From a bacterium (lineage in GTDB: Bacteria; Acidobacteriota; Thermoanaerobaculia; Multivoradales; J023), in the NCBI GenBank assembly GCA_024226315.1, contig JAAELT010000577.1, positions 12,032 to 76,031 on the forward strand: a stretch of DNA of 64,000 nucleotides. The letters run 5' to 3'. The translations under genes were made by a program, and so were the position numbers. The notes under the pieces were generated by a model. It ran no database searches. It saw only the letters and a program-made list of their open reading frames with translations, and was not told where the DNA came from. Within the stretch, counting starts at the first letter, position 1, and the number at the start of each line of letters is the position of its first letter. Positions 6,700-63,813 of this stretch are shown here, piece by piece.

Positions 6700-6830
6700 C
6701 TGGTCAACTCCTACCCCCTACCCATGGAAGGAGTTTCACGGCTCTGACAACTCTATCCCTGGCGCCGGGGTAGGAGTTGTCGGGGCTCGGCAACCTGTTC
6801 CCTGACGTCAGGGTAGGAGTTGTCCGGCTC
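6700..6830. repeat. cluster of nested hairpin repeats of the GACAACTCC(T)ACCC / GGAAGGAGTT family in a 700-bp intergenic region
   Basis: gtcaactcctaccc (6703-6716) pairs with gggtaggagttgtc (6768-6781). An inner hairpin is ggaaggagtt-N13-aactctatcc (6726-6758). A perfect palindrome ccctgacgtcaggg lies at 6800-6813. A second gggtaggagttgtcc lies at 6811-6825. Confidence 0.6.
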
Positions 6831-17792: not shown

Positions 17793-17812
17793 AGCGAACG
17801 CGGGGGAGAAAG

Positions 17813-20593: not shown

Positions 20594-20742
20594 GTTCGTC
20601 CTCCTCGATCTCGGCACTTCGTTCCAGCGGAACAGGGCGGTGAACACTGTACCACGGTCCCCGCCGACCTATCAGATCGTCCGAATACTCGGGCAATCTG
20701 ATAGGGTTGTTCGACAAATCCGCGGATCAGGGAGGCCGGCAC

Positions 20743-20940
20743 ATGACGTACGACGACGTGATCGCGCAGCTGGAGGAGAACCGCAACGAACGGGGCATGG
20801 CCAACTGGGTCAAGCTCGGGGGAGGCACGAAGCTCGAGAGTTTCGGCATCGGCCTGACCCAGTTGCGCAAGCTGGCCAGGAAAGTCGGGCGCGACCACAT
20901 GCTGCTTTACGAGCTGGGCAAGAAGAAGGGTAAGGCCTGA
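20743..20940 (+). pseudogene. N-terminal 65-aa fragment resembling DNA alkylation repair enzyme (AlkD/PF08713 family), truncated
   Basis: A GGGAGG RBS lies 7 bp before the ATG. VIAQLEENRNERGMANWVKLGGGTKLESFGIGLTQLRKLARKVGRDHMLLYELG matches the N-terminal HEAT-like repeat of the family. It stops where the family continues (LW.S..E.R...). The ATPase gene starts 5 bp later. Confidence 0.45.
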
Positions 20941-20945
20941 CCCGC

Positions 20946-22310
20946 GTGTTGACCCGGCTGGAGGCGGACGGCTTCAAGAACCTGCTCGACTTCCGGGTCG
21001 ACTTCGGTCCCTTCAACTGCATCGCCGGGCCCAACGGCGTCGGCAAGTCGAATGTCTTCGACGCCATTCGCTTCCTGTCGCTGCTGACCGAGCACACCCT
21101 CACCGAGGCGGCGCTCTCCGTGCGTGGCGCGGATCCCGAGGCCAGCGATCCCCAGGACCTGTTCTGGACCGACGGCCAGAACCGCGCCCGCGAGCTGCGC
21201 CTGGCGGCGGAAATGCTGGTCGAGCCGGAGGTGATCGACGACTTCGGCCGCCCCGCCCACGCCAGCTCGACCTTTCTGCGTTACGAGCTGGTGATCGGCC
21301 ATCGCGACCACGGGCTCGAGTTGCTTGCCGAGCGCCTCGGCTACGTGACCGAGCGGGCGGCCGCGCGACGGCTCCGGTTTCCCCACAATGCCGCGGACTT
21401 CAGGCGCGCGGCGGTGGTGAACAGGCGGCGGCGCAAAGACGGTTACGTCTCCACTCACCGGGCGGCGGACGGCTCGGCCGAGATCGCCGTGCACCAGGAC
21501 GCGGGCGGCGTCGGCACCCCGGCGGCACCGGCGTCCTCGGCGCCGCGGACGATCGTCGGCACCTCGGGTACCGCGGTCACGCCGACGCTGCTGGCCGCGC
21601 GTCGGGAGATGGCGCGGTGGCGGCTGCTGGCGCTCGAGCCCCGGGCATGCCGCCGCGCCGACCGCTTTCACGCCGCGCCCCACGTCGACCAGCAGGGCGC
21701 CCACTTGCCCGCGGCGCTGCGACGCCTGGCGGACGGATCCGGAGAGCCGGAAAAGGTTTACGCGCGAATCGCCCGCCGCCTCGCCGAGCTCACGCCGGTG
21801 ACCGGCGTCGGCGTGGCGGTCGACCCGGTACGCAGGCTGCTGACGCTGGAAGTGGTGGAAGAGGGGGGCGCGGTGCTGCCGGCGCGCTCATTGTCGGACG
21901 GCACGCTGCGCTTCCTGGCTCTCTCGATTCTGCGCGAGGATCCCGAGCTCGGCGGCCTGCTGTGCCTGGAAGAGCCCGAGAACGGCGTTCATCCCGGCCG
22001 CATCGAGGCCTGGGTGCGATTGCTGCGCGACCTGGCGGTCGACCCCCGCCAGCCGCCTGGGCCGGGCAATCCACTCCGCCAGGTTATCGTCGCTACACAT
22101 TCGCCCGCCTTCGTCCAGCTGGTGGACGAAGGCGACCTGCTGCTGGCCACCCGCGAGAGCCTCGAGGACCGGAGCGCGACCGCCCTGCGATGCCGTCCTC
22201 TGGCCGGCAGCTGGCGCGCACGGGGCGGGGCCAAGGGTATGAGCCCAGGCACCGCCCTGGCCTACCTCACCACCCAGCACGGCGACCAGATTCGCCTGCC
22301 GGACTTATAG
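20946..22310 (+). CDS. AAA15/OLD-family ABC-type ATPase (stand-alone; defence-associated ATPase class)
   Basis: N-terminus RLEADGFKNLLDFRVDFGPFNCIAGPNGVGKSNVFDAIRFL (Walker A). Q-loop/signature LSDGTLRFLALSIL. Walker B/D-loop LLCLEEPENGVHP. H-loop VIVATHSPAF. A low-complexity insert sits between the lobes. Confidence 0.75.
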   Translation: MLTRLEADGFKNLLDFRVDFGPFNCIAGPNGVGKSNVFDAIRFLSLLTEHTLTEAALSVRGADPEASDPQDLFWTDGQNRARELRLAAEMLVEPEVIDDFGRPAHASSTFLRYELVIGHRDHGLELLAERLGYVTERAAARRLRFPHNAADFRRAAVVNRRRRKDGYVSTHRAADGSAEIAVHQDAGGVGTPAAPASSAPRTIVGTSGTAVTPTLLAARREMARWRLLALEPRACRRADRFHAAPHVDQQGAHLPAALRRLADGSGEPEKVYARIARRLAELTPVTGVGVAVDPVRRLLTLEVVEEGGAVLPARSLSDGTLRFLALSILREDPELGGLLCLEEPENGVHPGRIEAWVRLLRDLAVDPRQPPGPGNPLRQVIVATHSPAFVQLVDEGDLLLATRESLEDRSATALRCRPLAGSWRARGGAKGMSPGTALAYLTTQHGDQIRLPDL

Positions 22311-34977: not shown

Positions 34978-35045
34978 CTGATAGGGAATTCGTACGAGAG
35001 CCAGTTCCGGATTCCTTGATCCAGGATTGCTATCCGGCCGCGCCG

Positions 35046-35274
35046 AACCGGGGGCGCTCGGGGTTGGGCTTGAGGCGGCCGAGCTCGATGCCGGTGTAGT
35101 AGTGGGCGAGGATGGAGCGGTAGCCGGCGCCGCGGACCGCCATGCCGAAGGCGCCGGCCTGGCACATGCCGACGCCATGGCCCCAGCCCTTGCCGCGGAA
35201 CACCCAGCCGGGCTCGCCGCCTCCGCCATTGGACGGCTGGGCCCAGAAGAGGGTGTCCCAGACGTCGAGGGTCC
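35046..35274 (-). repeat. diverged partial copy (about 230 bp, roughly 90% identity) of the 3' end of the SpoIID gene (original 36368..36596); in-frame translation ...[80 protein letters not shown]
   Basis: Direct alignment of 35046-35274 with 36368-36596. Substitutions are mostly synonymous or conservative (ASYRAILGHYY vs [11 protein letters not shown]). No upstream gene body. Confidence 0.75.
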
Positions 35275-35361: not shown

Positions 35362-35841
35362 TTACAGAATCTCTTCGAGCTTCGTGACGGGCGCGCGGTA
35401 GCCCTGAACGATCATGACGTCGAGCAGCTGGTTGCCCTCCTTCAGCGACAGCACACCGTTCTTGACGCATAGACCGAGGATGCCAACAGTGCCGGTGGTC
35501 GAGAGCCCCAATCTGCTCGCTGCCTTGCGAGCATCAAGGTCGTCAGTCACGATCACTTTGCCACGATGATGGGCGATCGCCAGGCAGCTTTTCTCGCCGG
35601 CTCCGAGCGAAGGTGGTAGCTCTTCAGCTGTCTTGTTCTCTTCGTCAGTAAGCTCGACGACAGTGAGGTCGTTCCAGGCCTCGGCAGGGACGCGGCCGCG
35701 TTCGACGCCGGCACGGTACTCACCTATCACGACCGCGGTGGTGCAGGCCGCATCGCCCCAGAGCCTGACGACCAGGTCTGGCCTACCGACCTTGGCGAGA
35801 TTCGACAACACGGTGTTGTCGAGGACGACCGACTGCGCCAC
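35362..35841 (-). CDS. PIN-like toxin (COG2405/DUF3368-type predicted nucleic-acid-binding PIN protein)
   Basis: N-terminus [25 protein letters not shown] conserved acidic position lies in [12 protein letters not shown]. Architecture and size are typical. Its start is 3 bp after the upstream antitoxin stop. Confidence 0.65.
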
Positions 35842-35843
35842 CG

Positions 35844-36278
35844 TCAGGAGAGAGTCGACTCCGCGATGAGGAGATCCTGCTTTGCGCCCTCACGATCGAT
35901 CGGAGCGTCGCGAAGGGGTAGGCCGAGACGCGAGAAGCGACCCCGCAGATCCAGCCAGGAGGTCCCCAGGACTTCTGCGGCTCGGGAGAGGCTGATGGCG
36001 CCGGACAGATAGTAGGCGAGGGCCGTTTCGGTTCGCGCCGTACCCGATAGACCGAGCAGCTTCGAGCCCTCCAGCCCCTGGCCCCGGTCGATCTGTGGGC
36101 GGTTGACGTAGTAGCAGATGACCGCCTTCAGGATCTCGAGATCGACAGGGTCGACGATGACGGCCTGGGGCTGACCGTGCTCTTCCACAACGATAGTTTC
36201 GCCTTGGCGAACGGCTCGGAGCACCCGGCCGGGGTCGCCGGCCAGCTCGTCTCGTCGGATGTGTCTGGCGGTTTTCAT
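35844..36278 (-). CDS. antitoxin: Phd/YefM-like N-terminus fused to UPF0175-type HTH C-terminus
   Basis: N-terminus MKTARHIRRDELAGDPGRVLRAVRQGETIVVEEHGQPQAVIV is Phd-like. C-terminus ALAYYLSGAISLSRAAEVLGTSWLDLRGRFSRLGLP is the UPF0175 motif. The upstream part of ORF-track entry 35844..36500 is out-of-frame read-through of the repeat. Confidence 0.6.
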   Translation of the reverse strand: MKTARHIRRDELAGDPGRVLRAVRQGETIVVEEHGQPQAVIVDPVDLEILKAVICYYVNRPQIDRGQGLEGSKLLGLSGTARTETALAYYLSGAISLSRAAEVLGTSWLDLRGRFSRLGLPLRDAPIDREGAKQDLLIAESTLS

Positions 36279-36351: not shown

Positions 36352-38595
36352 CTAGCCGGTCTCGCCAAACCGGGGGCGCTCAGGGTTGGGCTTGAGGCGG
36401 CCGAGCTCGATGCCGGTGTAGTAGTGGCCGAGGATGGCTCGGTAGCTGGCGCCGCGGACGGCCATGCCGAAGGCGCCGGCCTGGCACATGCCGACGCCAT
36501 GCCCCCAGCCCTTGCCGCGGAACACCCAGCCGGGCTCGCCGCCTCCGCCGTTTGAGGGCTGCGCCCAGAAGAGGTTGTCCCAGACGTCGAGGGTCCAGCG
36601 CACCGCGAGGCCCTCGACCTCCAGACTCTCTCCGCCGGTGCCGAGGAGGCGCAGCTTGCCGACGCGGCCGGAGACGCCGCGCGCGACGACTTCGAAGCCC
36701 TCGAAGGGAAAGCCCGGGTACCGCGCCTGGACCGCGGAGCGCAGCTTGCGGGCGGAGATGAAGCGTGACCAGGTCTGCTTCGACACCTTGCCTGCCAGGC
36801 GCACCGGAGACGCCTCGACCGGCTGCACCAGGGCGATCAGATCGCCGCGGTGGCGGTAGAGGTCGAGCCGGTCGCCGGCCATGAGCTCCAGCTGACCGGC
36901 GCTCAAGCTGTCGCCGCGGCGCCTGAAGGTGGCGAAGTCGCTCGTCAGGTCGTAGGCGTGGCGGCCGGCCCGGTCCTTGACTTCCAGGCGGCCCTGGACC
37001 AGCCGCAAATAGCTGGTCCGCTGGCGCTCCACCACGCCCAGATAGGAGGCGAGCCGGAACAGCAGCTCTTCGACCTCGCCGTCGCCGGCCGCCTCCTCGC
37101 CGGTCCCGGCGAGCCACGAGCTGGAGACCAGGTAGGCGGCGAGCTCGCGCTCGCGTCCGCGCCAGTCGGCGGGAGGCTCTTCGAGCATCGTCTCGAGCTC
37201 CGCGCGAGTCGACCGCAGACGCCGGTCGAGAGCCAGGTCGTAGACCGAGGTGGCGAAGCGCAGGACCTCCTTGCGGCGCATCGAGCGCAAGCGGTCTTTC
37301 GGCACCGGCAGGTGGGCGAGCAGTGCCAGCTGTTCCATGCGCGCGGCCAGGCTCCGATGCCTCTTGCCGGCAGCGGGCGGCAGCAGGCGGCGGGTGAGGC
37401 CGGCGGGGAACGGGGTGCCCACGGCGGCACCGCCCTGCAGCCGACCGGCGCCGGACTCCAGGCACGGGACGCCCCGCAGGTAGGGGCCGGTCTTGAGCGG
37501 AAAGATCACCTCGACGTTCTCGGTGTGGCCGCCGCAGGTGGCGCCGTAGAAGGTCTCGGCCGGTTGGCCCTCGAACAACACCACCTGGCCGGCGGTCTCG
37601 GCGACCGCCCGGTCGGAGACCGGGTGCTCGACGGCCATGCCGCCGTAGACCTGGCAACGCGGGGTCGAGCAGATATCGTAGCCCTCGGCCTTGAACTCGT
37701 CCAGGCTGCGCACCGTGTAGGTTCGCGCCGCCACTGCCTGCGCCTTGAGCGCCTCCAGCCGGTCGAACAGCTCGGGGCCCATCTCCTTGGGCACCACGCC
37801 ACGAAGGTAATCCTCTAGCTCGATCTCGTTGATGATGTTGAGGTTGCCGCGCTCGTTCAGGAAGATCAGCAGCCGGCCTCGATAGCGCACGCCGTCGTAG
37901 GGAATGCCGACGCCTGCCGGCGCGGAGATCTCGAGCCAGCGGCCGGGGACGTCACGGCGCTCGCCGCCGAGGACGATCTCGAACGCCGGGTCTCGCAGGT
38001 CGCCGCCCTCGCTGGCGATCCAGCCCTTCTCCAGGCCGAGGCTCTGGAGGCGCCCCTGACCGGCTTCGGCCTCCTCGCGGGTGGCGAAGCGTCCGACGCG
38101 CACGCGGTAGAGATCGGTGCCGGCGTCGAAGACGGCATCGGCCGGCTGGCCGGTGGTGGCGGCGAGTCGCTCGGCGAGACCGATGGCCTGGCGCTCGTCC
38201 TTGAGTGCCGCCACCTGCAGGCGGTAGACGGCGCGCTCGGCCAGGGTGCCGGCGGGAGAGACGCTGGCGGTCTGCGAAAGCGGGAGCATCTCGCCGCCGG
38301 CGTCGAGCTCGAGCCTGGCGTCGCAGCACGGCAGGTCCACGGACCTGAGGTCGGTGGCCAGGCCGACGCGCACGACCAGCGGGCCGGTGGGGACGGGCGG
38401 TGGCGGCGGCGGCGGTGGCGGCACCCGGCGCGGTGGCGCCTCGCGGCGTGGTGGCGGCGGTGGCGGCGTGATCCGCTCCTCCGGCGGGCGCGGCTCGGGT
38501 TTCGAGACCGGCCTGGCGCCGGGGCGGCAGGAGACCAGCGCGATCGCGAATCCCAGAGCGAGACCCAGCGAACAGATCAGCGTACGGCGAGGCAT
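36352..38595 (-). CDS. SpoIID/LytB-domain cell-wall protein with SPOR domain and N-terminal Pro-rich linker (lipoprotein-like signal LVSC)
   Basis: SPOR: YRLQVAALKDERQAIGLAERLAATTGQPADAVFDAGTDLYRVRVGRFATREEAEAG. SpoIID: LEALKAQAVAARTYTV...[40 protein letters not shown] tract. Confidence 0.8.
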   Translation of the reverse strand: MPRRTLICSLGLALGFAIALVSCRPGARPVSKPEPRPPEERITPPPPPPRREAPPRRVPPPPPPPPPVPTGPLVVRVGLATDLRSVDLPCCDARLELDAGGEMLPLSQTASVSPAGTLAERAVYRLQVAALKDERQAIGLAERLAATTGQPADAVFDAGTDLYRVRVGRFATREEAEAGQGRLQSLGLEKGWIASEGGDLRDPAFEIVLGGERRDVPGRWLEISAPAGVGIPYDGVRYRGRLLIFLNERGNLNIINEIELEDYLRGVVPKEMGPELFDRLEALKAQAVAARTYTVRSLDEFKAEGYDICSTPRCQVYGGMAVEHPVSDRAVAETAGQVVLFEGQPAETFYGATCGGHTENVEVIFPLKTGPYLRGVPCLESGAGRLQGGAAVGTPFPAGLTRRLLPPAAGKRHRSLAARMEQLALLAHLPVPKDRLRSMRRKEVLRFATSVYDLALDRRLRSTRAELETMLEEPPADWRGRERELAAYLVSSSWLAGTGEEAAGDGEVEELLFRLASYLGVVERQRTSYLRLVQGRLEVKDRAGRHAYDLTSDFATFRRRGDSLSAGQLELMAGDRLDLYRHRGDLIALVQPVEASPVRLAGKVSKQTWSRFISARKLRSAVQARYPGFPFEGFEVVARGVSGRVGKLRLLGTGGESLEVEGLAVRWTLDVWDNLFWAQPSNGGGGEPGWVFRGKGWGHGVGMCQAGAFGMAVRGASYRAILGHYYTGIELGRLKPNPERPRFGETG

Positions 38596-38607: not shown

Positions 38608-39549
38608 TTAGTCGGCGGACCGCCTGTGCCAGATGTCGTGTTGCCCCACCTTGACCTCCCTCCGGAAATCCCAATCCGGGAACCTGATCGGAAGCGCCAT
38701 TTCATAGAGGCGGCTCACCAGTTGCGCCGAGATCTTTTTCCGGAGATTGCCGTAGGGATTAACTGGGCGCTTCTGCTCGAAGGCCTGCGCCTCGCCCGAC
38801 TCGCGTCGACCGATCTCCTGCGCCGCGTGAGCGTCGCTGTTCAGTCGGGACATGTGTTTCGCTTTGATCGCGGCCAGTTTCTGGCTCTCTCCCGGGAGAT
38901 CCAGCCGGTAATTGGTAGTGAAAATCGTAGGAAGGCGGCGCAGGTAGCGGGTGTTCATGATCAGGTAGAGCGTGTCCATCACGAATTCGGTCGGTTTCTG
39001 GGCTCCCAGCTCGTCCAAAACGAGAACCTCGGCCGACATGATCGGATCCAGGATCTGGTGCTTCGATTCGGCCGAGCTGGGGTCGAACGTCGACTGGATC
39101 TGCTGGATCAACGCTGTGAAATCGACGAAGCGTCCTCGGACTCGATAGCGATCGATAAGTTCGGCCAGCACCGCCACTGCTAGATGAGTCTTGCCGGTGC
39201 CAGGGTTGCCGATGTAGATCAGCCCCGTTTCTATGGTGCGGTTCTCGATCGGATCGAAGAAATTGTCGACGTAGCGTTTGCTGGTCGATAGCGCCCTCTG
39301 AAGGAGATTGTGGACGTGAGGGTCAACGTTGGCGGACTTGAAGTTACCAAGCCGGCAGTGCTGGTAGCGTGCCGGGATTCTGGCTTTCGATCGATACTCG
39401 TGGGGCCGGTCGCGCTTGGTGCAGTCACAGGGCACGGCGGCGCCGGCACCGCCGTCGGCGGTCACTTTCCAGCCGCGACCGTGGCAGTCGGGACAGATGT
39501 TGGGATCCGGCTCGACGATCTGTGCCTCGGAGGGCACGAACTGCTTCAT
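38608..39549 (-). CDS. DnaC/IstB-family AAA+ ATPase (putative helicase loader) with N-terminal zinc ribbon
   Basis: CPDCHGRGWKV...CDCTK Zn ribbon. IPARYQHCRLGNF. Walker A GNPGTGKTHLAVAV. Walker B VLVLDELG. Sensor IFTTNY. Confidence 0.65.
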   Translation of the reverse strand: MKQFVPSEAQIVEPDPNICPDCHGRGWKVTADGGAGAAVPCDCTKRDRPHEYRSKARIPARYQHCRLGNFKSANVDPHVHNLLQRALSTSKRYVDNFFDPIENRTIETGLIYIGNPGTGKTHLAVAVLAELIDRYRVRGRFVDFTALIQQIQSTFDPSSAESKHQILDPIMSAEVLVLDELGAQKPTEFVMDTLYLIMNTRYLRRLPTIFTTNYRLDLPGESQKLAAIKAKHMSRLNSDAHAAQEIGRRESGEAQAFEQKRPVNPYGNLRKKISAQLVSRLYEMALPIRFPDWDFRREVKVGQHDIWHRRSAD

Positions 39550-54601: not shown

Positions 54602-57600
54602 ATGAATCCCGCTTCCCTCGCCGTTCGCCGCCCGATCACCACCGCCATGCTGCTGCTCAGCATCCTGCTGTTCGGCGGCATCGCGCTCACGCGCCTGCCG
54701 GTGGAGTTCCTGCCCGAAGTCGACATCCCGTTCATCGCCGTCGAGATCCCCTACGACAACACCAACCCGGCGCAGGTCGAGCGCGAGATCACCAAGCCGG
54801 TGGAGGAGATCCTGGCGACGCTGCCCGGCATCAAGCGGCTGGGCTCGGACTCCAACGCCGACGGCGCCTTCATCTTCCTGGAGTTCAACTGGGGCCACGA
54901 CCTCGACATCGTGCGCATGCAGGTGTCGGAGAAGATGGACCAGGTCGAGGGTGAGCTGCCCGAGCAGATCGGCGAGATCCGGATCTTCTCCTTCAACAGC
55001 TCCGACATCCCGGTAGTCGAGGCGCGCATCTCGGCCGAGGGCGTCGACATGTCGGAGAACTACCAGCTGCTCGAGGCCCGGGTGCTCAACCGCATCCGGC
55101 GCATCCCGGGCGTCGCCAAGGTCGAGCTCGACGGCGTCGAGCCGCGCGAGATCTTCGTCGAGCTGGTGCTCGACAAGGTCAAGGAGCACGGCGTCGACGT
55201 CGGCGAGCTGATCCAGTTGCTGAACGGTGCGTCTTCCAACCTGGTACTGGGCGAGGTCCAGGACGGAGGCCTGCGCTACACCGCCCGCGCCCTGGGCTCG
55301 TTCGAGAGCGTCCAGGAGCTGCGCGAGCTGGTGATCGACGAGCGCGGCCTGCGCCTGGCCGACATCGCCGAGATCAGTTACGAGGAGCCGCCGATCCGCT
55401 ACGGCCGGCACCTGAACCGCAAAGACGCCGTCGCCCTGACCGTGTTCAAGGAGTCCACCGCCAACACCGTCGAGGTGGTCAACGCGGTGATGGGCGTGAT
55501 CGAGAACGACATCGACGGCGACCCCCTGCTGCAGGGCGTCAGCCTGTTCGTGTGGCAGAACCAGGCCGAGCAGATCACGGGCGCCCTCAACGGCCTGACC
55601 CGCGCCGGCTTGATCGGCGCCCTGCTCGCCGTCCTGGTGCTCTACTTCTTCCTGCGCCGCCTTGGCTCGACGCTGATCGTCTCCATGTCGATTCCGTTCT
55701 CGATCATCGCCGCCTGCGGCGTGATGTATTTCATGGGCAAGACCCTGAACGTGCTGTCGATGATGGGATTGATGCTGGGCGTCGGCATGCTGGTCGACAA
55801 CGCCATCGTCATCCTGGAATCGATCGACCGCACCAAGCGCAGCGAGCCGGACCCGAAGAAGGCCGCGCTGAAAGGCACCAAGAGCGTCTCGATGGCGGTC
55901 ATCGCCTCGACCGCGACGTCGCTGATCGTCTTCCTGCCGCTGATCGTTGGGGGCGAGTCCGAGCTCACCGTCTGGCTCGGCGAGGTGGGCATCGCCATCG
56001 CCCTGGCGCTGGTCTGCTCGCTGGTCTCGTCACTGACCCTGATCCCGCTGATGACCAGCCGCTTCCTGCCGGCCGGCAAGTCGAAGCCGATTCCGCTGAT
56101 GGCCCGCACCGAAGACCGCTACGTGCATCTGCTGCACTGGACGCTGCGGCACAAGCTGCGGACCTTCCTGCTGATCGTCGGCGGCGCCGGCTTCGGCTTC
56201 CTGCCGTTCTTCGCCGGCTGGGTGGACATGAGCCAGTTCTCCGGCGCGGTCAACGAGCGCCTCTACCTGGACTACGAGTTCACCGACTTCGTCTACAAGT
56301 CCCAGGCCGAGGACGTGGTCGACGTCGTCGAGCAGCACCTCGAGCCACAGCTCGAGGAGCTGGGCGTCGCCTCGATGTACAGCTTCTACACCTCCAACCG
56401 GGCCGGCACCACGTTGACCCTGGCGCGCAAGGACCTGGGCGACAAGGAGGTCAAGAAGCTGCGCCAGAAGATCCGCGACGGCCTGCCCGAGATCCCGGGC
56501 GTCAAGCTGGCGTTCTTCGAGGACGCTGACTCGGGCGGTGGCTCGACCTACTTCTCGGTCAACTTCTTCGGCCAGGATTCAGGCGTGCTGGCGAAGTTCG
56601 GCGACGAGGCCAAGCGGCGGCTCGAGACCGTCGAGGGCGTGCAGGACATCACCACTTCGTTCGGCAAGAGCCGCAAGGAGATCCAGGTTCAGGTCGACCG
56701 CGACAAAGCGGCGCGCTTAGGGCTGACCGCCCAGGAGGTGGCCGACACCTTCTCCTTCACCCTCGGCAGCTTCCGCCTGCCGCGCTTCAACGACGGCAAG
56801 CGCGAGGTGGAGACCTCGCTCGGGCTGCGCATCGTCGACCGCGAGAACCTGGCGGACCTCAAGGAGATCCCGTTCCGTGACGTCGACGGCCGGCCGGTGA
56901 CCCTGGGCGACGTCGCCACCTTCGAGGTGGTGGAGAAGCCCGAGGAGATCGAGCGCCAGGACCGCAAGGTGCGCGCCGCGGTGCGGGCCACCTACGAGGG
57001 CGAGAACTGGGACGAGGCGCGCGAGGAGATCACCGCCCTGATGGACGCCTTCGACCTGCCGGGCGGCTATTCCTGGTCGTGGAACCGGCGCATGATCGAG
57101 CAGGACCAGCAGGGCGCCGAGATGGGCGTCAACATGCTGCTGGCGCTGGTGCTGATCTACCTGGTGATGGCGTCGCTGTTCGAATCGCTGGCGCAGCCGT
57201 TCTCGATCCTGTTCTCGATCCTCTTCGCCCTGCCCGGCGTTGCCTGGCTGCTGGCCGCCACCGACACGCCTTTCAACCTGATGTCGTGGATCGGCTTCCT
57301 GATCCTGATGGGCATCGTGGTCAACAACGGCATCGTGTTGCTGGATCACATGAACCAGCTGCGCAAGGAAGGCCTGGGCATCGAGGAGTCCATCCTCATG
57401 GCCGGCCGCGACCGCATGCGAGCCGTGCTGATGACCGCCTCGACCACCATCATCGGCCTCCTGCCATTGGCCATCGGCGGCTCCCGTGTCGGCGGCTTGT
57501 TCTACTATCCGCTGGCCATCACCGTCATGGGCGGACTGATGTCCTCGGCGGTGCTGACCCTGGTGGTGCTGCCCTACATCAACTGGAACGTCGAGTTCGT

Positions 57601-57703
57601 GGCGGCGTGGATCCGGCGGCTGTGGCGGGAGTCCGGGGCGGTGCGGTCGCCGCGTCGGGTGGAGTCGGCTCGGCCGGTCGAGACCGTCGAAGTGGTGGGT
57701 TGA
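54602..57703 (+). CDS. RND efflux transporter permease, second of tandem pair (MdtC-like)
   Basis: MNPASLAVRRPITTAMLLLSILLFGGIALTRLPVEFLPEVDIP. About 45% identity to the upstream paralog in conserved blocks. The tandem arrangement is as in MdtABC. Confidence 0.9.
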   Translation: MNPASLAVRRPITTAMLLLSILLFGGIALTRLPVEFLPEVDIPFIAVEIPYDNTNPAQVEREITKPVEEILATLPGIKRLGSDSNADGAFIFLEFNWGHDLDIVRMQVSEKMDQVEGELPEQIGEIRIFSFNSSDIPVVEARISAEGVDMSENYQLLEARVLNRIRRIPGVAKVELDGVEPREIFVELVLDKVKEHGVDVGELIQLLNGASSNLVLGEVQDGGLRYTARALGSFESVQELRELVIDERGLRLADIAEISYEEPPIRYGRHLNRKDAVALTVFKESTANTVEVVNAVMGVIENDIDGDPLLQGVSLFVWQNQAEQITGALNGLTRAGLIGALLAVLVLYFFLRRLGSTLIVSMSIPFSIIAACGVMYFMGKTLNVLSMMGLMLGVGMLVDNAIVILESIDRTKRSEPDPKKAALKGTKSVSMAVIASTATSLIVFLPLIVGGESELTVWLGEVGIAIALALVCSLVSSLTLIPLMTSRFLPAGKSKPIPLMARTEDRYVHLLHWTLRHKLRTFLLIVGGAGFGFLPFFAGWVDMSQFSGAVNERLYLDYEFTDFVYKSQAEDVVDVVEQHLEPQLEELGVASMYSFYTSNRAGTTLTLARKDLGDKEVKKLRQKIRDGLPEIPGVKLAFFEDADSGGGSTYFSVNFFGQDSGVLAKFGDEAKRRLETVEGVQDITTSFGKSRKEIQVQVDRDKAARLGLTAQEVADTFSFTLGSFRLPRFNDGKREVETSLGLRIVDRENLADLKEIPFRDVDGRPVTLGDVATFEVVEKPEEIERQDRKVRAAVRATYEGENWDEAREEITALMDAFDLPGGYSWSWNRRMIEQDQQGAEMGVNMLLALVLIYLVMASLFESLAQPFSILFSILFALPGVAWLLAATDTPFNLMSWIGFLILMGIVVNNGIVLLDHMNQLRKEGLGIEESILMAGRDRMRAVLMTASTTIIGLLPLAIGGSRVGGLFYYPLAITVMGGLMSSAVLTLVVLPYINWNVEFVAAWIRRLWRESGAVRSPRRVESARPVETVEVVG

Positions 57704-57881
57704 GTTTCACTCGCCCTGAGTCTCCCAGCCCGAGAGCTCGTCTCCCAGCCCCTGCCCTCGCTGTAGGCCTCGGCCCGCAGCTCGGGCTCGTCCTGACTGT
57801 AGGGCACCAGTTCGCCTAAACGCCGTTTCGAACTCGTACGTATTGGCAGGTGTACCGGGTGTTCGATTTCAGGAGTCGTAG

Positions 57882-59999
57882 ATGCTCGATGAGGTGCTAC
57901 CGGCGACACGATCCGGCGGTGTACGCTGCTCGAAGGGGCGGTCTCACCGTGGCGGTCTGCTCCTCGTCTGCGCCCTCCTGACGCAGCCAGCGTCGGCGGG
58001 GGCTCGAGAGGAACAGAGCGCGCCAGTCGTGCCGCCCGCTATCCAGCACCTACACAGCGCCCATCGGCTGATAGAGCTCGGTCTTCCGGACTTCGCCTTG
58101 GAGCATCTCCTGGAGATCGATCACGAGGTTCTGCCCGAGAGTGGTCTCTCGCCTTACACCGCGCAGATCGCGTATCTCGCCGCGAGACTCGACGTCCTCG
58201 GCGAGGCGCTCGAAACTCTCACCGCGTCGAACCTGACCGCCGAGCGTCTGCGGCCCTTCGCCGCCACCTGGAACGCCAGGGCCGTGGTCGCGATTCGCGA
58301 CGGCCGGGTTTCCGAGGCGCTCGAGGCCTGGGACCAGAGCCTCGAGCGCGAGCCATCGTTCGGAGAGCGACGTACGATCTTCCGGTCGGCGATCGCGCGG
58401 ATCGGGAACACGGACGCGGGATACATCGAGGTTGACCCGGAGGTCCAGGGAGGTGCCTTGAGGTCGTTCTTGGAGACCTGGGGCAAGCGCACTTCTTTGG
58501 GGCTCGACCCCGAGGTGGTCGAGCTTCTCTTCGCCCTAGAGAAGAAGCTGGACCCCGAAGGCCCTGACGCGCAGCTCTGGGCCGAACGCTATCTCACGCT
58601 CACCCAGGCGACTCCGCTCGCCCTCTATCGCCGGGGGGCTCTGGAGATGGCGCGCAGGCAACCGGACATGGCCTTGCCCTGGTTTCTCTGGGCGGCTCAT
58701 ACGGACAAGTTCGCATCGGACCTGTCGCCGAAGAGTTGGAGATCCCTCGCAGTGGTTTACAGAGAGCTCGGATGGTGCGATCGAGCCGCCGAGGCGTGGG
58801 AGCTCGCCCTGGCGCAGGGACGGCCTCCGTGCCAGCCGGCGGCAAGGCGCTCGACGAATTTCGAGGAGTGCGTCGACTGGCACGACCAACTTCTGGCCTA
58901 TTCGCCGGAGCGAATGATCGTCTTCTGGCGCGGCAGCTGGCAGGATTCCGTGCCCGACCTGCACATCTGGAGGAGTCGATGCCGCTGGCCCGAGCCCAGT
59001 CCGTTCGCGCACATGTCCGACTCGTACGATTGCAGCCGCAATCGGCGACCTCGCCTGGCGGAAAGGCAGCTGGATCGCCAGGGGCCCGGGAGTTTTCCCA
59101 CTCGCCTGCTTTGCGCCCTGAACCAGGCGAAGCTCATGTTCCCGGCGCTCGGTCGTCGCTTCGACGACGAGCTCCTAACGCGTAGGCTCTCAGAGGTGCC
59201 CGCCGACCAGCGCTCGAGCTTGTGGGAGGCGAGGGCTCTCTTCAGCCTGCGACAGGGTGATGTGGACCAGGCGATGGCCTACTTCTGGAACGTTCTCGAG
59301 CACGATCCATTCGCGCGGCGGAAGCGCGACCGTTGGAGAAGGTTCTCGCGTGGTCTGTCGAGAAGTCCGGTGGCGCGAGGAGATCGGGTCGCGAGGTTCT
59401 TGCGCGACACGTTCGACCACCATGTGAGCACCGAGGAGCGGCCTGGCCTCTACCGGGTCCATCTCGCCACCCATCTGAGGAGAGTGGCTCCGAGCTCGAG
59501 CATCACCCTGCGCTTGGTCGACGAGATTCTGAGCTCGCCGTTGCCCCATGACGGATCCCTCTCGATGTTCCGGACGACGATCGAGCTCGACCTCGATCGC
59601 CCCGCGGACGCGCTTCCCCACCTGCTGCAGGCCTACGAGGAGCTCGGAACGCGTGAGCTCCCTGCCTTGCAGCCCGACCGGGGGAGGTACCGTGAGATCG
59701 CGGGGACGTTGGTGAGCGTCTACAGCCGTTTGCGTTGGTGGGATTTGGCCCTGGACATCGCGGCGACGCTCGATTCCGAGATTCCCGAGCTGTCGGCTCT
59801 CGATCCGGCGGATATTCTCGAATCGAGCTTGCCGGAACAGTGCCGTGCCCTGCGGTCGCGATTGGAGAAGGGACGTGGTGCCAGCCTGATTCGGACCGAA
59901 GGTGAATGGCATCGGGAGCGTCTGAGAATCCTGGCCGAGTGGGAGGGTGCATGTACTTCGCTGCGGCCGGCAGAGCGAGAATCCTCTCCCGCGTCGTAG
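57882..59999 (+). CDS. hypothetical protein (705 aa, N-terminal signal-like segment, helical/TPR-like). It is cargo of the first insertion module downstream of the RND gene.
   Basis: Long ORF with coding bias. LLLVCALLTQPASAGA is signal-like. It lies between the RND gene stop and the duplicated RND 3'-end copy. No family recognised. Confidence 0.5.
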   Translation: MLDEVLPATRSGGVRCSKGRSHRGGLLLVCALLTQPASAGAREEQSAPVVPPAIQHLHSAHRLIELGLPDFALEHLLEIDHEVLPESGLSPYTAQIAYLAARLDVLGEALETLTASNLTAERLRPFAATWNARAVVAIRDGRVSEALEAWDQSLEREPSFGERRTIFRSAIARIGNTDAGYIEVDPEVQGGALRSFLETWGKRTSLGLDPEVVELLFALEKKLDPEGPDAQLWAERYLTLTQATPLALYRRGALEMARRQPDMALPWFLWAAHTDKFASDLSPKSWRSLAVVYRELGWCDRAAEAWELALAQGRPPCQPAARRSTNFEECVDWHDQLLAYSPERMIVFWRGSWQDSVPDLHIWRSRCRWPEPSPFAHMSDSYDCSRNRRPRLAERQLDRQGPGSFPTRLLCALNQAKLMFPALGRRFDDELLTRRLSEVPADQRSSLWEARALFSLRQGDVDQAMAYFWNVLEHDPFARRKRDRWRRFSRGLSRSPVARGDRVARFLRDTFDHHVSTEERPGLYRVHLATHLRRVAPSSSITLRLVDEILSSPLPHDGSLSMFRTTIELDLDRPADALPHLLQAYEELGTRELPALQPDRGRYREIAGTLVSVYSRLRWWDLALDIAATLDSEIPELSALDPADILESSLPEQCRALRSRLEKGRGASLIRTEGEWHRERLRILAEWEGACTSLRPAERESSPAS

Positions 60000-60088
60000 G
60001 CTTCGCGGGGCGCGGACGCCCGATGGGTGAACCTCGGCGACCAGGACCTCGCTCGGGGCGCCTCGAATCGCCGACGTAATGAGTCGCC

Positions 60089-60338
60089 GGCCTCCTGCCC
60101 CTGGCCCTGGGCGGCTCCCGTGTCGGCGGGCTGTTCTACTACCCGCTGGCGATCACCGTCATGGGCGGGTTGATGTCCTCCGCGGTGCTGACCCTGGTGG
60201 TGCTGACCTACATCAACTGGATCGTCGAGTTCGTGGCGGAGTGGCTGAAGCGGCTGTGGCGGGAGTCGGGGGTGGTGCGGGCTCCGCGTCGGGCGGAGCC
60301 GGCGCCGGTAGGCGAGACCGTCGAGGCGGTGGGGTGAG
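60089..60338 (+). repeat. diverged copy (about 250 bp, roughly 88% identity, in-frame, with stop) of the 3' end of the second RND gene (original 57455..57703)
   Basis: The alignment is in frame. The copy encodes LLPLALGGSRVGGLFYYPLAITVMGGLMSSAVLTLVVLTYINWIVEFVAEWLKRLWRESGVVRAPRRAEPAPVGETVEAVG* against the original GLLPLAIGGSRVGGLFYYPLAITVMGGLMSSAVLTLVVLPYINWNVEFVAAWIRRLWRESGAVRSPRRVESARPVETVEVVG*. Confidence 0.8.
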
Positions 60339-60367
60339 CCGCTGAGCGCCTGTGATCGCGAATCCGA

Positions 60368-60607
60368 TCAAGCCTGCTCGTAGGCGCTCAAGAAGTCGTC
60401 TCTGGTGATCTTCGACTGTCTCAAGATGGTCCGGAGGGTGGACGCCTTGAGGCGGCGATGGTTGGGCATCGTCAGAGGCGTTTTCGTGCCGTCTGCATTC
60501 TCGCGAACCATGGCGATGTGGTTGCCTTCGCGGACGATCACGAAGCCGACTGACCCCAGCGCTTTGACGACCCGCTTCTTCGGGGCATCGACGGGGAACT
60601 TCGGCAT
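60368..60607 (-). CDS. hicA: HicA-family mRNA interferase toxin
   Basis: MPKFPVDAPKKRVVKALGSVGFVIVREGNHIAMVRENADGTKTPLTMPNHRRLKASTLRTILRQSKITRDDFLSAYEQA matches the YcfA/HicA consensus (GSH-like segment EGNH, trailing helical region). Confidence 0.7.
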   Translation of the reverse strand: MPKFPVDAPKKRVVKALGSVGFVIVREGNHIAMVRENADGTKTPLTMPNHRRLKASTLRTILRQSKITRDDFLSAYEQA

Positions 60608-60832
60608 CTAGACCGCGACGGCCATCTCGGCAACGAAGACCTCGCTGGCCTCGTCTTCTTCCTCGAGGACTTCTCGGCCGAAGGTCTCTACGTGGAACTC
60701 GATGGCGGACTTCGCATCCGCTAGCGCCTCTTCGTACGTGTCGCCTTCAGCAACCACGACTCCTTTGAGCCCGACCGGATAGGCGACATAGCCGTCGGCG
60801 TGTTTCTCGACAATGATCTTGATGTTCTTGAC
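60608..60832 (-). CDS. hicB: HicB-family antitoxin (UPF0150)
   Basis: GTG start preceded by a GGAGGAG RBS. VKNIKIIVEKHADGYVAYPVGLKGVVVAEGDTYEEALADAKSAIEFHVE. The stop abuts the hicA ATG. The ORF-track entry extends upstream without support. Confidence 0.65.
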   Translation of the reverse strand, partial: VKNIKIIVEKHADGYVAYPVGLKGVVVAEGDTYEEALADAKSAIEFHVETFGREVLEEEDEASEVFVAEMAVAV

Positions 60833-60863
60833 CACTGGGGAACTCCTCCGGTTGGAAGGCGTG

Positions 60864-61136
60864 CTAATTGCGCTGAGTAGCCCGGTGGGCATCGGCGAGA
60901 TCCTGCTCGAGCTCTTCCGGGGCCTCTCCGAAGGGGGAGAGGCCATAGCGACTCAACAAGAAGAGGAAGGTGAAACGAGGCATCCCGGCGAGGCTGGCCG
61001 CCAGCCCCGTGCTCAGCCGTCCCGTCTTGTAGAGCTGCAATGCCAGCAGGAGGGGAGCCTCCGCCTCGAACTCCTCGGGCTCCTGCTGGAGAGCCCACAA
61101 GACTTCGGATGGGTAGTCGATGGTGAGGGTCTTCAT
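60864..61136 (-). CDS. UPF0175-family small HTH protein (antitoxin-type) without adjacent PIN partner
   Basis: MKTLTIDYPSEVLWALQQEPEEFEAEAPLLLALQLYKTGRLSTGLAASLAGMPRFTFLFLLSRYGLSPFGEAPEELEQDLADA is a UPF0175 match (LS.G.AA.LAGM.R..F...L...G). Confidence 0.5.
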   Translation of the reverse strand: MKTLTIDYPSEVLWALQQEPEEFEAEAPLLLALQLYKTGRLSTGLAASLAGMPRFTFLFLLSRYGLSPFGEAPEELEQDLADAHRATQRN

Positions 61137-61458
61137 CGACAGAGAGCCTATCACCCCAGGGTGCGGGGAGCCCGACGGCTCCCCGCGCGGGGCACTGACT
61201 TCAGTCGGCCCAGAGATAGCTCTAAAGGTGCCGGCCGAATCGGCAGAAGTTGCGGCGGGTCGTCCGGCAGTTAGTCTTAGGGTCGGCTGGGGTACGCCGC
61301 CTTCAGCTGCTTGCGCACCTTGGCGAGGCCCCGGACACGGCAAGGCGGCGAGGCCGGATACTTCTGTGAGACCACTCGACAAGGGGATCTTCTGCACGAC
61401 CCCGGTCTCCTTGTCCACCCTCAGCAGCACGCCGTTTGAAGGGGCGGTCGCGGCCCAG

Positions 61459-61740
61459 AGGGTGCCGTCGCTGAGCGCGGCTGTACATGATGTCAATGCA
61501 TCCGTTGTCACCGACCGGGGTCAAGTCTCCATTCCGGCTCATCTCCGCAAAGAGCTCGCTTTGACCAAGGGCCAACGCCTTCTCTGGCGGAAGACAGGTG
61601 AGCGCGAGCTCCGGATCGTAGTTCTCGAGCCTCCGGCACCCCGTGGCGCCCAGGCCATGCGCGGTTTCGCCCGACGATTCCGCGCCGAGCCTCGGACGAC
61701 GGCCGAGTGGATGGCTGAGCTGCGGGCAGGCGAGAGCTGA
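61459..61740 (+). CDS. vapB: VapB-type antitoxin (AbrB/MazE/SpoVT swapped-hairpin domain), GTG start
   Basis: SVVTDRGQVSIPAHLRKELALTKGQRLLWRKTGERELRIVVL is the SpoVT/AbrB fold signature. Its stop overlaps the vapC ATG (ATGA). The exact start is uncertain. Confidence 0.55.
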   Translation, partial: RVPSLSAAVHDVNASVVTDRGQVSIPAHLRKELALTKGQRLLWRKTGERELRIVVLEPPAPRGAQAMRGFARRFRAEPRTTAEWMAELRAGES

Positions 61741-62207
61741 TGACCTGGGTGGTCGACACCTGCATGTTGATCGACATTCTGGAGGACGATCCGAGGTTTG
61801 GCGAGGCTTCGGCTCAGTTCTTCGATCACCACACCAGCGATGGTCTGGTCGTCTGCCCGGTGACCTACGCCGAGCTGGCACCCGCCTTCCGAGGCAACCT
61901 GACTCTTCAAGACGAATTCCTCGATGGTATTGGAGTCGACTGCCGAGAGGATTGGGTCCGGCAGGACACTCTCAAAGCGCATGAAGCCTGGAGTGCTCAC
62001 ATCCGGCGGCGGCGTGGCGGCCAAGCGCCCAAGCGGCCTCTGGCCGACATCCTGATCGGCAGCTTCGCCCTCCGCTTCCAGGGCTTGATGACTAGAAATC
62101 CGGACGGTTTTCGGACCGCCTTCCCCTCTCTCGAGCTTCGAGTTCCAATCGTCCCGGAGAACGATGATCTTGCAGCTGATCAGGACCGGGACGCTCCCCA
62201 GCCTTGA
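61740..62207 (+). CDS. vapC: VapC-type PIN-domain toxin
   Basis: MTWVVDTCMLIDILEDDP (first Asp). Conserved acidic residues lie in LVVCPVTYAEL and ADILIGSFAL. PIN-like size and architecture. Confidence 0.75.
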   Translation: MTWVVDTCMLIDILEDDPRFGEASAQFFDHHTSDGLVVCPVTYAELAPAFRGNLTLQDEFLDGIGVDCREDWVRQDTLKAHEAWSAHIRRRRGGQAPKRPLADILIGSFALRFQGLMTRNPDGFRTAFPSLELRVPIVPENDDLAADQDRDAPQP

Positions 62208-62277
62208 GCCACTCCGTGACGCGATCGTCGAGCTCGGCCAGGCAGTCGGCGTCCCAGGTGACCGGCTTGTCGCGGCG

Positions 62278-62343
62278 GCCGTCTCGGCAGGTGCGGGCTC
62301 CGCGTCGGGTGGAGCCGACTCGGCCGGTCGAGACCGTCGAAGC
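62278..62343 (+). repeat. third, short (about 66 bp) copy of the extreme 3' end of the RND gene, including stop
   Basis: ggtgcgggctccgcgtcgggtggagccgactcggccggtcgagaccgtcgaagcggtggggtga aligns with 57640-57703 and with 60275-60338. Confidence 0.65.
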
Positions 62344-62482
62344 GGTGGGGTGAGCGACGTCTGATCGAGCCTTCGCGGCCTCCCGAGCTTCCGCGACCGC
62401 TACGGGTTCTGCTAGACTTCCTCACGAAGGGTCACGCCGCAACGCGGTGTGAGACGGACAACGGCAGGACCAGGAAAGCATC

Positions 62483-63091
62483 ATGCCTCCATCGACACCG
62501 AGCCCCTCGACGGTCGCGTACCTGCACGCGCATGGTTTGCAGGTCACTCCGGAGCAGTTGGACGGCCTGGTCCAGGAGGCGATCGACCGTCTGCAGCAAG
62601 AGCTCTTTCGCTCCGATCCGCGGCGCGAGCTCTCCCGGGAGGAGATCGAGATCCTGGAGGCCGGAGGATTCGACCTCGAGCCCGTCGACCTGGGCGGCGA
62701 GGATCCCCTCGCGCGAGCGGCGGCGCTCTATTCCGGGCTGCTCAAGACCAGTCTCGACACCGCCGCCGCGGCGCGGCTGCTGGGAGTCGATCCGAGCCGC
62801 ATACGGCATCGGTTGACGTCTCGTCCGCCGAGCCTCTACGGAATCCGTCTCGGGTCGGGGTGGCGCCTGCCGCGCTTCCAGTTCGACGGCGAGAGACTCG
62901 TTCCCGGCATCGGCGAGGTGGTGGCGGAGCTCGATCCCGAGCTCCATCCCGCGACAGTCCACAACTGGTTCGTCTCGTCCAATCCAGACCTCGTGGCCGA
63001 GAGCCTCGCCGAAGGGCTGCTGAGCCCGCGCGACTGGCTGTGTCACGGATTCCCGCCGCGAGCCGTCGCCGCGCTGGCGAGGCATCTGTAG
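62483..63091 (+). CDS. putative Xre/MbcA/ParS-like antitoxin partner of the RES toxin (HTH-containing)
   Basis: Lies immediately upstream of the RES gene (15-bp gap). HTH-like AAARLLGVDPSRIRHRLTSRPPSLYGIRLGSGWRLPRF. The gene-order convention is antitoxin then RES. Confidence 0.45.
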   Translation: MPPSTPSPSTVAYLHAHGLQVTPEQLDGLVQEAIDRLQQELFRSDPRRELSREEIEILEAGGFDLEPVDLGGEDPLARAAALYSGLLKTSLDTAAAARLLGVDPSRIRHRLTSRPPSLYGIRLGSGWRLPRFQFDGERLVPGIGEVVAELDPELHPATVHNWFVSSNPDLVAESLAEGLLSPRDWLCHGFPPRAVAALARHL

Positions 63092-63106
63092 CCAGATTCG
63101 ACGCAG

Positions 63107-63730
63107 GTGCCCAGGTTTCCGGAGCCGCCGACGGACGCGGAGCTGGCCGAAAGCTCGCCCGAGCGGAAGATTCTGCCGGCCGGCACCCTGCTCTGGCGCG
63201 TGTACTTCCGGGGCGGAGATCATCCGACGTACTGGGATACCTTCCGCTCGTTCGGCCCCACGACCGGCCGGTTCGATCATCACCCGCCGCCGTCTTCGGT
63301 GCAGGAGCGGAGAATCTTGTACAGCGCCGAGCAGGGCCTGACCTGCCTCGCGGAAGTGTTTCAGGACAGCAGGATCATCGATCGAACGGCTCGCAAACCG
63401 TGGATCGTCGCCTTCCGCACCCGGCAGGACCTGACGCTGCTCGATCTGACGGGCGACTGGCCGACGCGAGCCGGCGCCTCCATGGTCATCAGCTCCGGGC
63501 CGCGGCCTCGGGCGCAGCGTTGGTCGCGAGCGATCTACTCCGCGTTCGCGGACGTCGACGGGCTCTACTACCCCTCTTCCATGGCGGCCAGCCGCCCTGC
63601 TCTGGCGCTCTACGAGCGCGCCGGGTCGGCGATACCCACCGCTCCTGCCTTTCACCGGCCGCTGTCGGATCCCACGCTGCTCACGTTGCTGCGCAACGCG
63701 GCGCGGGATCTGGGCTATGCCGTGCTTTGA
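63107..63730 (+). CDS. RES-domain toxin (NAD+-targeting RES family)
   Basis: LWRVYFRGGDHP...GRFDHHPP (R). ILYSAEQGLTCLAEVF (E). WIVAFRTRQDLTLLDLT (S). Order and spacing match the RES consensus. Confidence 0.75.
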   Translation: MPRFPEPPTDAELAESSPERKILPAGTLLWRVYFRGGDHPTYWDTFRSFGPTTGRFDHHPPPSSVQERRILYSAEQGLTCLAEVFQDSRIIDRTARKPWIVAFRTRQDLTLLDLTGDWPTRAGASMVISSGPRPRAQRWSRAIYSAFADVDGLYYPSSMAASRPALALYERAGSAIPTAPAFHRPLSDPTLLTLLRNAARDLGYAVL

Positions 63731-63813
63731 AGAGCGGCCACGAAGCGGTGGGTAGGAAAAAATCCTCGCAGCTTGCCGAAGTCGAGTAGCCGCTGGAAAG
63801 TCCCAGCCGGCGC

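Follow-up and report, generated by a model that had tools for sequence, protein, structure and literature searches.

Diverged 3' ends of ordinary genes delimit toxin-antitoxin-rich insertions in an acidobacterial genome and suggest homology-driven gene-end displacement

Introduction

In an uncultured acidobacterium of the Thermoanaerobaculia (Multivoradales, J023), a gene encoding a resistance-nodulation-division (RND) efflux permease is followed by three consecutive blocks of cargo genes, mostly toxin-antitoxin (TA) modules, and each of the two distal blocks is preceded by a shortened, diverged copy of the 3' end of the pump gene. How did such an array arise? The window analysed here, namely the whole stretch of 64,000 nucleotides to which all positions refer, corresponds to positions 12,032 to 76,031 of contig JAAELT010000577.1 (assembly GCA_024226315.1). 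A first, sequence-only reading had attributed the array to elements that integrate site-specifically into the 3' end of the pump gene and bring a replacement end with them. We report that the divergence between the copies supports an imported replacement end, that the same footprint is found at two other, unrelated genes of the window, and that neither a recombinase among the scanned genes nor a site common to the junctions was found. We therefore lean towards a displacement of gene ends driven by homology.

Results

The pump gene is the second of an MFP-RND1-RND2 operon (MFP, membrane fusion protein) that is kept in 80 related loci of the Thermoanaerobaculia and related Acidobacteriota. The intact gene and the repeated segments are the following.

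54602-57703, plus strand: intact RND (AcrB-type) permease gene, the anchor of the array (Pfam ACR_tran, E=2.5e-184)
57454-57704, plus strand: resident 3' end of the pump gene (last transmembrane helix and cytoplasmic tail), the repeated segment
60088-60338, plus strand: orphan copy 2 of the pump 3' end, 251 nt, 87% identity, in frame, no indel, own TGA
62274-62354, plus strand: orphan copy 3 of the pump 3' end, tail only, 81 nt, 85% identity, in frame, own TGA

Using blastn, 57454-57704 was aligned with 60088-60338 over 251 nt without any indel (E about 1e-83) and 57624-57704 with 62274-62354 over 81 nt (E about 1e-19), the firm homology of copy 3 being 62291-62354. These E-values exclude a chance similarity. 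In the three copies the frame is kept up to a terminal TGA followed by a G, and the longest block invariant across all of them is 12 nt. The in-frame copies of the pump end that had been described between the cargo blocks are thus real, with identities above the 70% below which, as with a loss of frame, they could have been dismissed. The third copy had been given as 66 bp (62278-62343); the copy is present, at about 62274-62354.

Comparison of the window with itself revealed the same succession, an intact gene, then cargo, then a diverged orphan of the gene's 3' end that keeps a stop codon of its own, at two genes besides the pump gene.

36352-38595, minus strand: intact gene of a 747-aa SpoIID/SPOR-domain protein, second anchor (Pfam SpoIID and SPOR)
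35362-36278, minus strand: cargo of the second locus, a Phd/UPF0175-type antitoxin (about 35844-36278) and a PIN/DUF3368 toxin (35362-35841)
35029-35274, minus strand: orphan of the last 246 nt of the SpoIID gene, 93.5% identity, in frame, own TAG
19058-20647, minus strand: intact gene of a 529-aa BNR-repeat-like exported protein, third anchor
16443-18952, plus strand: cargo of the third locus, a saccharopine dehydrogenase (16443-17792) and an AlaDH/PNT-type dehydrogenase (17813-18952)
16290-16382, minus strand: orphan of the last 30 codons of the BNR gene, 93 nt, 89% identity, in frame, own TAA

Homology of the SpoIID orphan runs to one nucleotide past the stop codon. At the BNR locus, the dehydrogenase genes lie on the strand opposite to that of the BNR gene and their GC content at third codon positions (GC3) is host-like (0.93-0.96). 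Altogether, the window contains four such events, distributed over three genes with no sequence in common at their ends.

The divergence between resident and orphan ends was then characterised by the proportions of synonymous (pS) and nonsynonymous (pN) differences. In the transmembrane part of the pump end (57455-57625), comparison of the gene with copy 2 gave a pS of 0.22 and a pN of 0.06, that is a pN/pS ratio of 0.28; the ratio rises to 0.68 in the cytoplasmic tail, which is under weaker constraint. Similar ratios were obtained for the SpoIID (0.19) and BNR (0.30) ends, with pS values of 0.17-0.23 at all three loci, and none of the orphans of the window, which reach 251 nt, carries an indel. 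The pooled pN/pS is about 0.25, compared to the roughly 0.5 that neutral drift of one copy should give (p about 0.01, a rough binomial estimate). A displaced end that decays where it lies should moreover gather indels. The low pN/pS together with the absence of indels indicates that most of the divergence arose in working genes of separate lineages, and copies that diverged as functional alleles in separate lineages imply that the incoming DNA supplied the replacement 3' end. Both the import of this end and the absence of a recent local duplication, as put forward in the sequence-only reading, are therefore supported. The similar pS values and the lack of indels at the three loci further suggest that the lineages in which the ends diverged were comparably distant. 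When the pump ends were compared to those of relatives, copy 2 was closer to them than the resident end by 3-6 percentage points over 171 nt, too narrow a difference to tell which of the two alleles is native.

An alternative would be that the repeats result from local events or from an artefact, either a duplication in situ (for example a long target-site duplication) followed by divergence, or a chimera of co-assembled strains. The source is a metagenome-assembled genome (MAG), and the fact that all three loci have a pS near 0.2 might, in principle, mirror two co-existing populations. However, a pooled pN/pS below the neutral expectation and the absence of indels over up to 251 nt argue against this alternative. 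In addition, contig L108, which belongs to an independent assembly (GCA_024449835.1), differs from window 57441-60804 at only four positions (99.88% identity) and covers three junctions, from the pump end through the TPR gene and copy 2 to HicAB. The junctions of block 1 and copy 2 are consequently unlikely to result from a one-off chimera, the match ending at 60804, upstream of the junctions of copy 3, to which this support does not extend. No sequence overlap able to mislead an assembler is present at the junctions, and analogous structures occur in unrelated assemblies. Taken together, these data make a local or artefactual origin very improbable.

Related genomes were examined for the same footprint. 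In a survey of representative genomes, a set to which the source genome does not belong, about 70 orthologous pump loci had usable downstream sequence, and only one of them, L037, carries an orphan pump end. This frequency indicates that the pump end is no conserved attachment site. The L037 orphan (80 nt, 91% identity) lies about 1 kb past the stop codon and continues in frame to its own stop, and the intervening module is a TA pair composed of an Rv0078B-type antitoxin and an AbiEii-like toxin. Including L037, orphan pump ends were detected in five other Thermoanaerobaculia contigs. The remaining four (L084, L085, L086 and L092) are metagenomic contigs closer to the window than the representatives, in which the orphans stand without any pump context. 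L084 contains a 300-nt copy (89% identity) that ends at the stop codon; in L085 the orphan is located behind galT-galK and is followed by an RHH-PIN pair; L086 contains three pump-end fragments interleaved with Phd, BrnT/A and PIN-Phd modules, and L092 contains two fragments. Further pump-end junctions are represented by the chimeric open reading frames (ORFs) P0090, P0092, P0097 and P0098. Two of these, P0097 and P0098 (L085 3016-3390), come from different metagenomes and have in common the junction GWA[CY]YYPLARTVMGG, which joins unrelated sequence to the pump C-terminus. This junction apparently reflects a single displacement event inherited by diverged lineages, and its sharing suggests that an orphan can be maintained over long periods.

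Among 12 orphan pump ends from at least seven loci, the left boundaries are scattered between RND residues 915 and 1014, over about 100 codons or some 300 nt. In the numbering of the window protein they fall at residues 915, about 925, 928, 935, 937, 952, about 955, about 965, 983, about 995 and about 1009. Such variable left boundaries are predicted if the exchanged DNA carried homologous fragments of variable length. Mirror-image footprints were also found at gene 5' ends. In L061 (10500-14225), a Holophagales MAG contig related to L037, a gene encoding a 1061-aa STAND NTPase-TPR protein lies between the two copies of a 272-nt direct repeat (92% identity), which takes in the promoter-proximal portion of a TA operon, and in L086 a 232-nt repeat (3927-4158 versus 8347-8578, 93% identity) lies over a Phd gene. 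These 5' duplications indicate that the process is bound neither to one gene nor to one gene end.

Other direct repeats of 270-370 nt and about 93% identity surround 2-4 kb of DNA in the Thermoanaerobaculia contigs L026 (10309-10584/12501-12778), L040 (11072-11438/15036-15400) and L002 (12054-12325/14792-15065), the L026 repeat beginning exactly at the stop codon of the pump gene. Two sets of candidates were rejected. Short matches to the RND C-terminus on the long contigs L001-L003 proved to be frameshift-fragmented genes in long-read assemblies rather than orphans, and a supposed TA cassette with fixed ends in L037, L061 and L063 corresponds merely to a conserved coding region plus about 35 nt.

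To what extent could a site-specific element account for the array? Phage 21 and element e14 at icd provide the reference: an imported, mostly synonymously diverged 3' end restores the gene, and the original one comes to lie beyond the insert. Elements of this type encode their own integrase and use one fixed crossover, so that the left end of the orphan marks the crossover and should be constant. As at icd, the imported end at the pump locus runs as far as the stop codon, and the former end is located distal to the insert. By contrast, we found here no integrase, variable boundaries, several target genes and cargo of about 1-3 kb. The recombinase scan covered the 38 GC3-supported probable genes of the window, most of them compared against Pfam, up to position 64000. 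No integrase, transposase or resolvase was detected among the scanned genes, as already noticed in the sequence-only reading, and no recombinase was found in the related arrays L037, L084, L085, L086 and L092. An IstB/DnaC-like AAA+ protein (38608-39549) scores far under the family cutoffs and has no transposase partner. Neither tRNA, tmRNA nor Rfam families were detected in the window, and no 8-mer is common to three or more of the junction sequences (100 nt after each stop codon and 100 nt before each orphan). Likewise, no shared motif or hairpin was found at the cargo ends, and relatives of the pump end were not found in viral contigs. In plasmid and phage collections, blastn returned only trivial similarities to the pump or RES genes.

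According to the site-specific explanation, integrase-dependent elements, or integrase-less derivatives of the cis-mobilisable element (CIME) kind mobilised in trans, would target the RND 3' end and accrete in tandem, the integrase being encoded past the window edge or elsewhere. The order of the array is compatible with accretion, the replacement end stops at the stop codon with similarity gone 1-4 nt later, like a gene end borne by attP, and several related metagenomic contigs likewise contain orphan pump ends, frequently together with TA modules; the scanned sequence moreover ends at 64000. On the other hand, the footprint is also present at two other genes, the ends of which are unrelated in sequence, and the left ends of the orphans, which are the marks of the crossover in the icd geometry, range over about 300 nt. 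In addition, an invariant block of at most 12 nt, the lack of a recombinase in 64 kb and in five other arrays, the small size of the cargo units (1-2.7 kb), the single orphan among about 70 orthologous loci and the absence of pump fragments from viral contigs are all at odds with it. Of the features of integrative elements, the locus thus displays a replacement 3' end, but neither a recombinase, a fixed crossover with an identical core nor a single target. We consider this explanation unlikely, and the integrase-mediated integration first proposed is not supported.

The cargo genes of the pump array and the repeats that follow them are listed below.

57882-59999, plus strand: block 1, 705-aa TPR-repeat protein with a signal-like N-terminus (Pfam TPR_2/TPR_1)
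60368-60607, minus strand: block 2, HicA toxin (Pfam HicA_toxin, E=1.7e-11)
60608-60832, minus strand: HicB-like antitoxin, start codon approximate (sub-cutoff Pfam HicB_lk_antitox/DUF5678 and position upstream of HicA)
60864-61136, minus strand: solo UPF0175 antitoxin-like gene, without partner toxin (Pfam UPF0175, E=1.5e-21)
61483-61740, plus strand: MazE/AbrB-type antitoxin (VapB-like), overlapping the start of the PIN gene (Pfam MazE_antitoxin, E=1e-6)
61740-62207, plus strand: PIN-domain toxin (VapC-like; Pfam PIN, E=4.5e-5)
62483-63091, plus strand: 202-aa protein upstream of RES, putative cognate antitoxin by position only
63107-63730, plus strand: RES-domain toxin (Pfam RES, E=6e-14)
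63813-64000, no strand: palindromic units resembling repetitive extragenic palindromes (REP-like), about 33 nt each, 42-nt spacing, about four units, at the window edge

Most of these genes had been recognised from the sequence alone, including the solo UPF0175 gene, the VapBC pair and the hairpin repeats at the window edge. The 705-aa protein, previously described as an unknown secreted protein, keeps its length and its signal-like N-terminus and is now assigned to TPR-repeat proteins; it is 100% identical to the database record GY719_34635. Look-ups of identical proteins for RES, RND, PIN and the 202-aa protein returned no record. Of the HicB-HicA pair, HicA is identified by Pfam and the HicB assignment is weak, under the Pfam cutoff. 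The RES domain of the presumed Xre-RES pair is confirmed, but not the Xre label, no Xre or helix-turn-helix relationship being detected for the 202-aa partner, which has no match in Pfam or NCBIfam and only chance-level matches in the PDB. The RES family itself, with 1748 homologs, is widespread and has a constant length of 207 aa in the Thermoanaerobaculia. The partner toxin of the solo UPF0175 gene may have been displaced by the HicAB pair; the UPF0175-type antitoxin at 35844-36278, unlike this solo gene, does have a PIN/DUF3368 partner. A search for the same cargo blocks elsewhere, suggested in the sequence-only reading, gave no homolog of the window cargo proteins in 107 related loci, and the only homolog of the TPR protein (45% identity) stands in an unrelated context.

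The GC3 values of the cargo genes (0.70 for PIN, 0.75 for PIN/DUF3368, 0.77 for HicB and 0.78 for TPR), compared to 0.87-0.95 for core genes, suggest that the TA and TPR cargo is compositionally foreign although the attached gene ends come from relatives.

Some further features of the window should be mentioned. The REP-like unit is almost confined to the 63813-64000 edge. REP-like palindromic arrays are also present in L063 (10335-10667) and L084 (1700-1775), in spacers right behind pump-end copies or stop codons, and the unit sequence is genome-specific, being different in the window, L063 and L084. Two intergenic repeats were observed, 16197-16262 versus 6723-6788 (66 nt, 79%), the former adjoining the BNR orphan on its downstream side, and 11372-11414 versus 4663-4705 (43 nt, 88%). 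The region 11638-14298 encodes an 886-aa protein with RHS repeats, Rhs loci being the classical home of displacement arrays. Finally, a 77-aa ORF followed by a 454-aa AAA_21/AAA_15 (AbiEii/OLD-like) ATPase (20707-22310) may constitute a defence or TA-like pair.

Discussion

Our results argue, with fair though not decisive weight, for gene-end displacement driven by homology, through a RecA-type single crossover or a homology-anchored insertion, rather than for a site-specific element. DNA from a related lineage, about 7-15% diverged, would arrive with the 3' fragment of a conserved gene joined to other downstream genes and would recombine with the resident gene via this shared fragment. The route that we favour would be an insertion-duplication of the Campbell type, in which a circularised molecule enters by one RecA-type crossover, an alternative route being a homologous crossover on one side and an illegitimate join on the other. 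The gene would remain intact and now read into the imported 3' end and the cargo, while its former 3' end, cut at a variable point, would be shifted downstream along with the old neighbours. Repeated rounds would stack older ends distally, which is the natural reading of the array and agrees with what had been proposed for it; the pump array would then comprise, from the newest, the TPR block, the HicAB/UPF0175/VapBC block and the RES block, the latter being the oldest or ancestral. Recombination between repeats could also loop out a circle made of one repeat and its cargo, able to re-insert wherever a homologous gene exists. TA modules probably favour the retention of the inserts. The direct duplication of a homologous segment at the bounds of each insert, without inverted repeats or a short target-site duplication, is that of a Campbell-type event.

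Related processes have been described at other loci. Strings of displaced 3' fragments with a variable core length and no integrase are known from rhs, for which the proposed mechanism is homologous recombination with an episome in the form of a circle that bears part of the core together with a tip (Jackson et al. 2009, PMC2935791). Like the rhs, CdiA and MafB arrays, the loci described here consist of an intact gene followed by dissociated 3' fragments of variable conserved length with their own downstream genes, no integrase is found, and the repeats are homologous (copies 85-93.5% identical). They differ in that the anchors are ordinary genes (RND pump, SpoIID-like, BNR-like) and no polymorphic toxins, that the displaced ends are orthologous and conserved instead of alternative toxin tips, and that the variable part starts past the stop codon. 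The cargo consists of TA modules, a TPR protein and metabolic genes; no polymorphic toxin tip with a cognate immunity gene is present.

In Vibrio cholerae, a sequential displacement by homology-anchored recombination has been proposed for the effector-immunity arrays of the type VI secretion system (T6SS; Kirchberger et al. 2017, PMC5361080). There as here, new modules enter beside a conserved upstream anchor, older genes shift downstream and growth proceeds without a recombinase. The T6SS arrays lose the old effector and accumulate immunity genes only, whereas the old gene end stays here as an in-frame fragment, and the process operates at several unrelated loci. An experimental counterpart is found at E. 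coli lacZ, where a single crossover of recircularised truncated molecules yielded gene-end duplications of 109-950 bp in 56 of 60 recombinants; true homology-facilitated illegitimate recombination usually deletes recipient DNA (PMC3240628). In both cases the insert is bounded by a direct gene-end duplication of variable length (66-300 nt here). The lacZ events involved a laboratory plasmid and identical repeats; those described here are natural, concern alleles 7-15% diverged and restored the gene. A full-text search of the literature retrieved nothing relevant on TA insertions with 3'-end duplication.

Several observations weigh against displacement by homologous recombination. Homology arms as short as 66-93 nt, with 85-90% identity, serve RecA poorly, unless they are what is left of longer arms that were cut back afterwards. 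The expected donor arrangement, in which the pump gene is natively followed by the same cargo, was not found, cargo homologs being absent from the 107 related loci; four events in 64 kb represent a high density for a supposedly rare process; and the recombinase scan reaches only to the window edge at 64000. Another difficulty is the sharpness of the boundary, which is beyond what standard models explain. In every pair of the window and in L084, similarity ends 1-4 nt past the stop codon. Over the 150 nt past the stop, alignment scores are 9-15 compared to 10-12 for shuffled sequences, and they are 108-129 over the 150 nt before it. Intergenic DNA can be aligned at such divergence, as a single alignment of L037 with L061 extends over 10 kb, and among the relatives of L037 the synteny break falls at 0, +30 and +60 nt. 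Cargo starts aligned with stop codons are not predicted by random insertion into spacers of 30-180 nt, and the boundary is easier to reconcile with modules made to deliver a substitute gene end than with generic recombination. Past copies 2 and 3, 60339-60488 and 62355-62504 align with a score of 15 versus 9.9 +/- 1.7 for shuffles; as 7 of 300 shuffles reach this score, it may be due to chance.

This boundary calls to mind an undescribed cassette system, in which small, mostly TA modules equipped with the 3' end of a host gene as a homing arm would be inserted at gene ends by a machinery acting in trans, forming integron-like arrays without attC or IntI. Besides the sharp, stop-codon-aligned start of the cargo in all cases, the cassette-like cargo sizes, the enrichment in TA modules, the number of events in one genome and the recurrence of the pattern inside one clade are in keeping with it. 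The array does resemble integrons and clusters of attC sites lacking integrases (CALIN) by its short serial cassettes, many of them TA modules, with the newer units proximal. It differs from them in that no IntI was found, the window being devoid of any detected integrase next to which attI could be sought, and in that no attC-like motif or structure is common to cargo starts or ends, although no dedicated attC model was run; with no motif at any junction and 12 nt as the longest invariant block, the integron-like recombination sites of the sequence-only reading find no support. Moreover, no candidate enzyme, shared site or structure was found for such a system, the cargo genes lie in both orientations, the dehydrogenase pair of the BNR locus is ordinary metabolic cargo whose GC3 resembles that of the host, duplications in mirror image exist at 5' ends, and known RecA-dependent processes yield the same duplications. 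A dedicated cassette machinery thus appears improbable, to about the same degree as the integrase-dependent elements, and homology-driven displacement remains the explanation that we prefer.

Taken together, the array is best classed among the displacement arrays, here affecting ordinary genes of an uncultured acidobacterial lineage and made up mainly of TA cargo. Displacement arrays have so far been treated as peculiar to polymorphic toxin loci (Rhs, CdiA and T6SS effectors), and the same architecture is now seen behind efflux-pump, SpoIID-like and BNR-like genes in 64 kb of one uncultured acidobacterial genome. If general, orphan gene ends would provide a simple signature to date and order gene acquisitions, TA modules and small cargo would spread among relatives without a recombinase, and annotators would have reason not to call such arrays decayed genomic islands or integrons. 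On a more speculative note, and with less likelihood than displacement as such, the TA-rich modules of the Thermoanaerobaculia could be recombinase-free homology cassettes, whose 3'-end homing arm is trimmed at the stop codon and which loop out and re-insert behind the orthologous gene elsewhere. If this were true, integron-like arrays behind ordinary genes would represent a major, unrecognised route of accessory-gene flux in the phylum.

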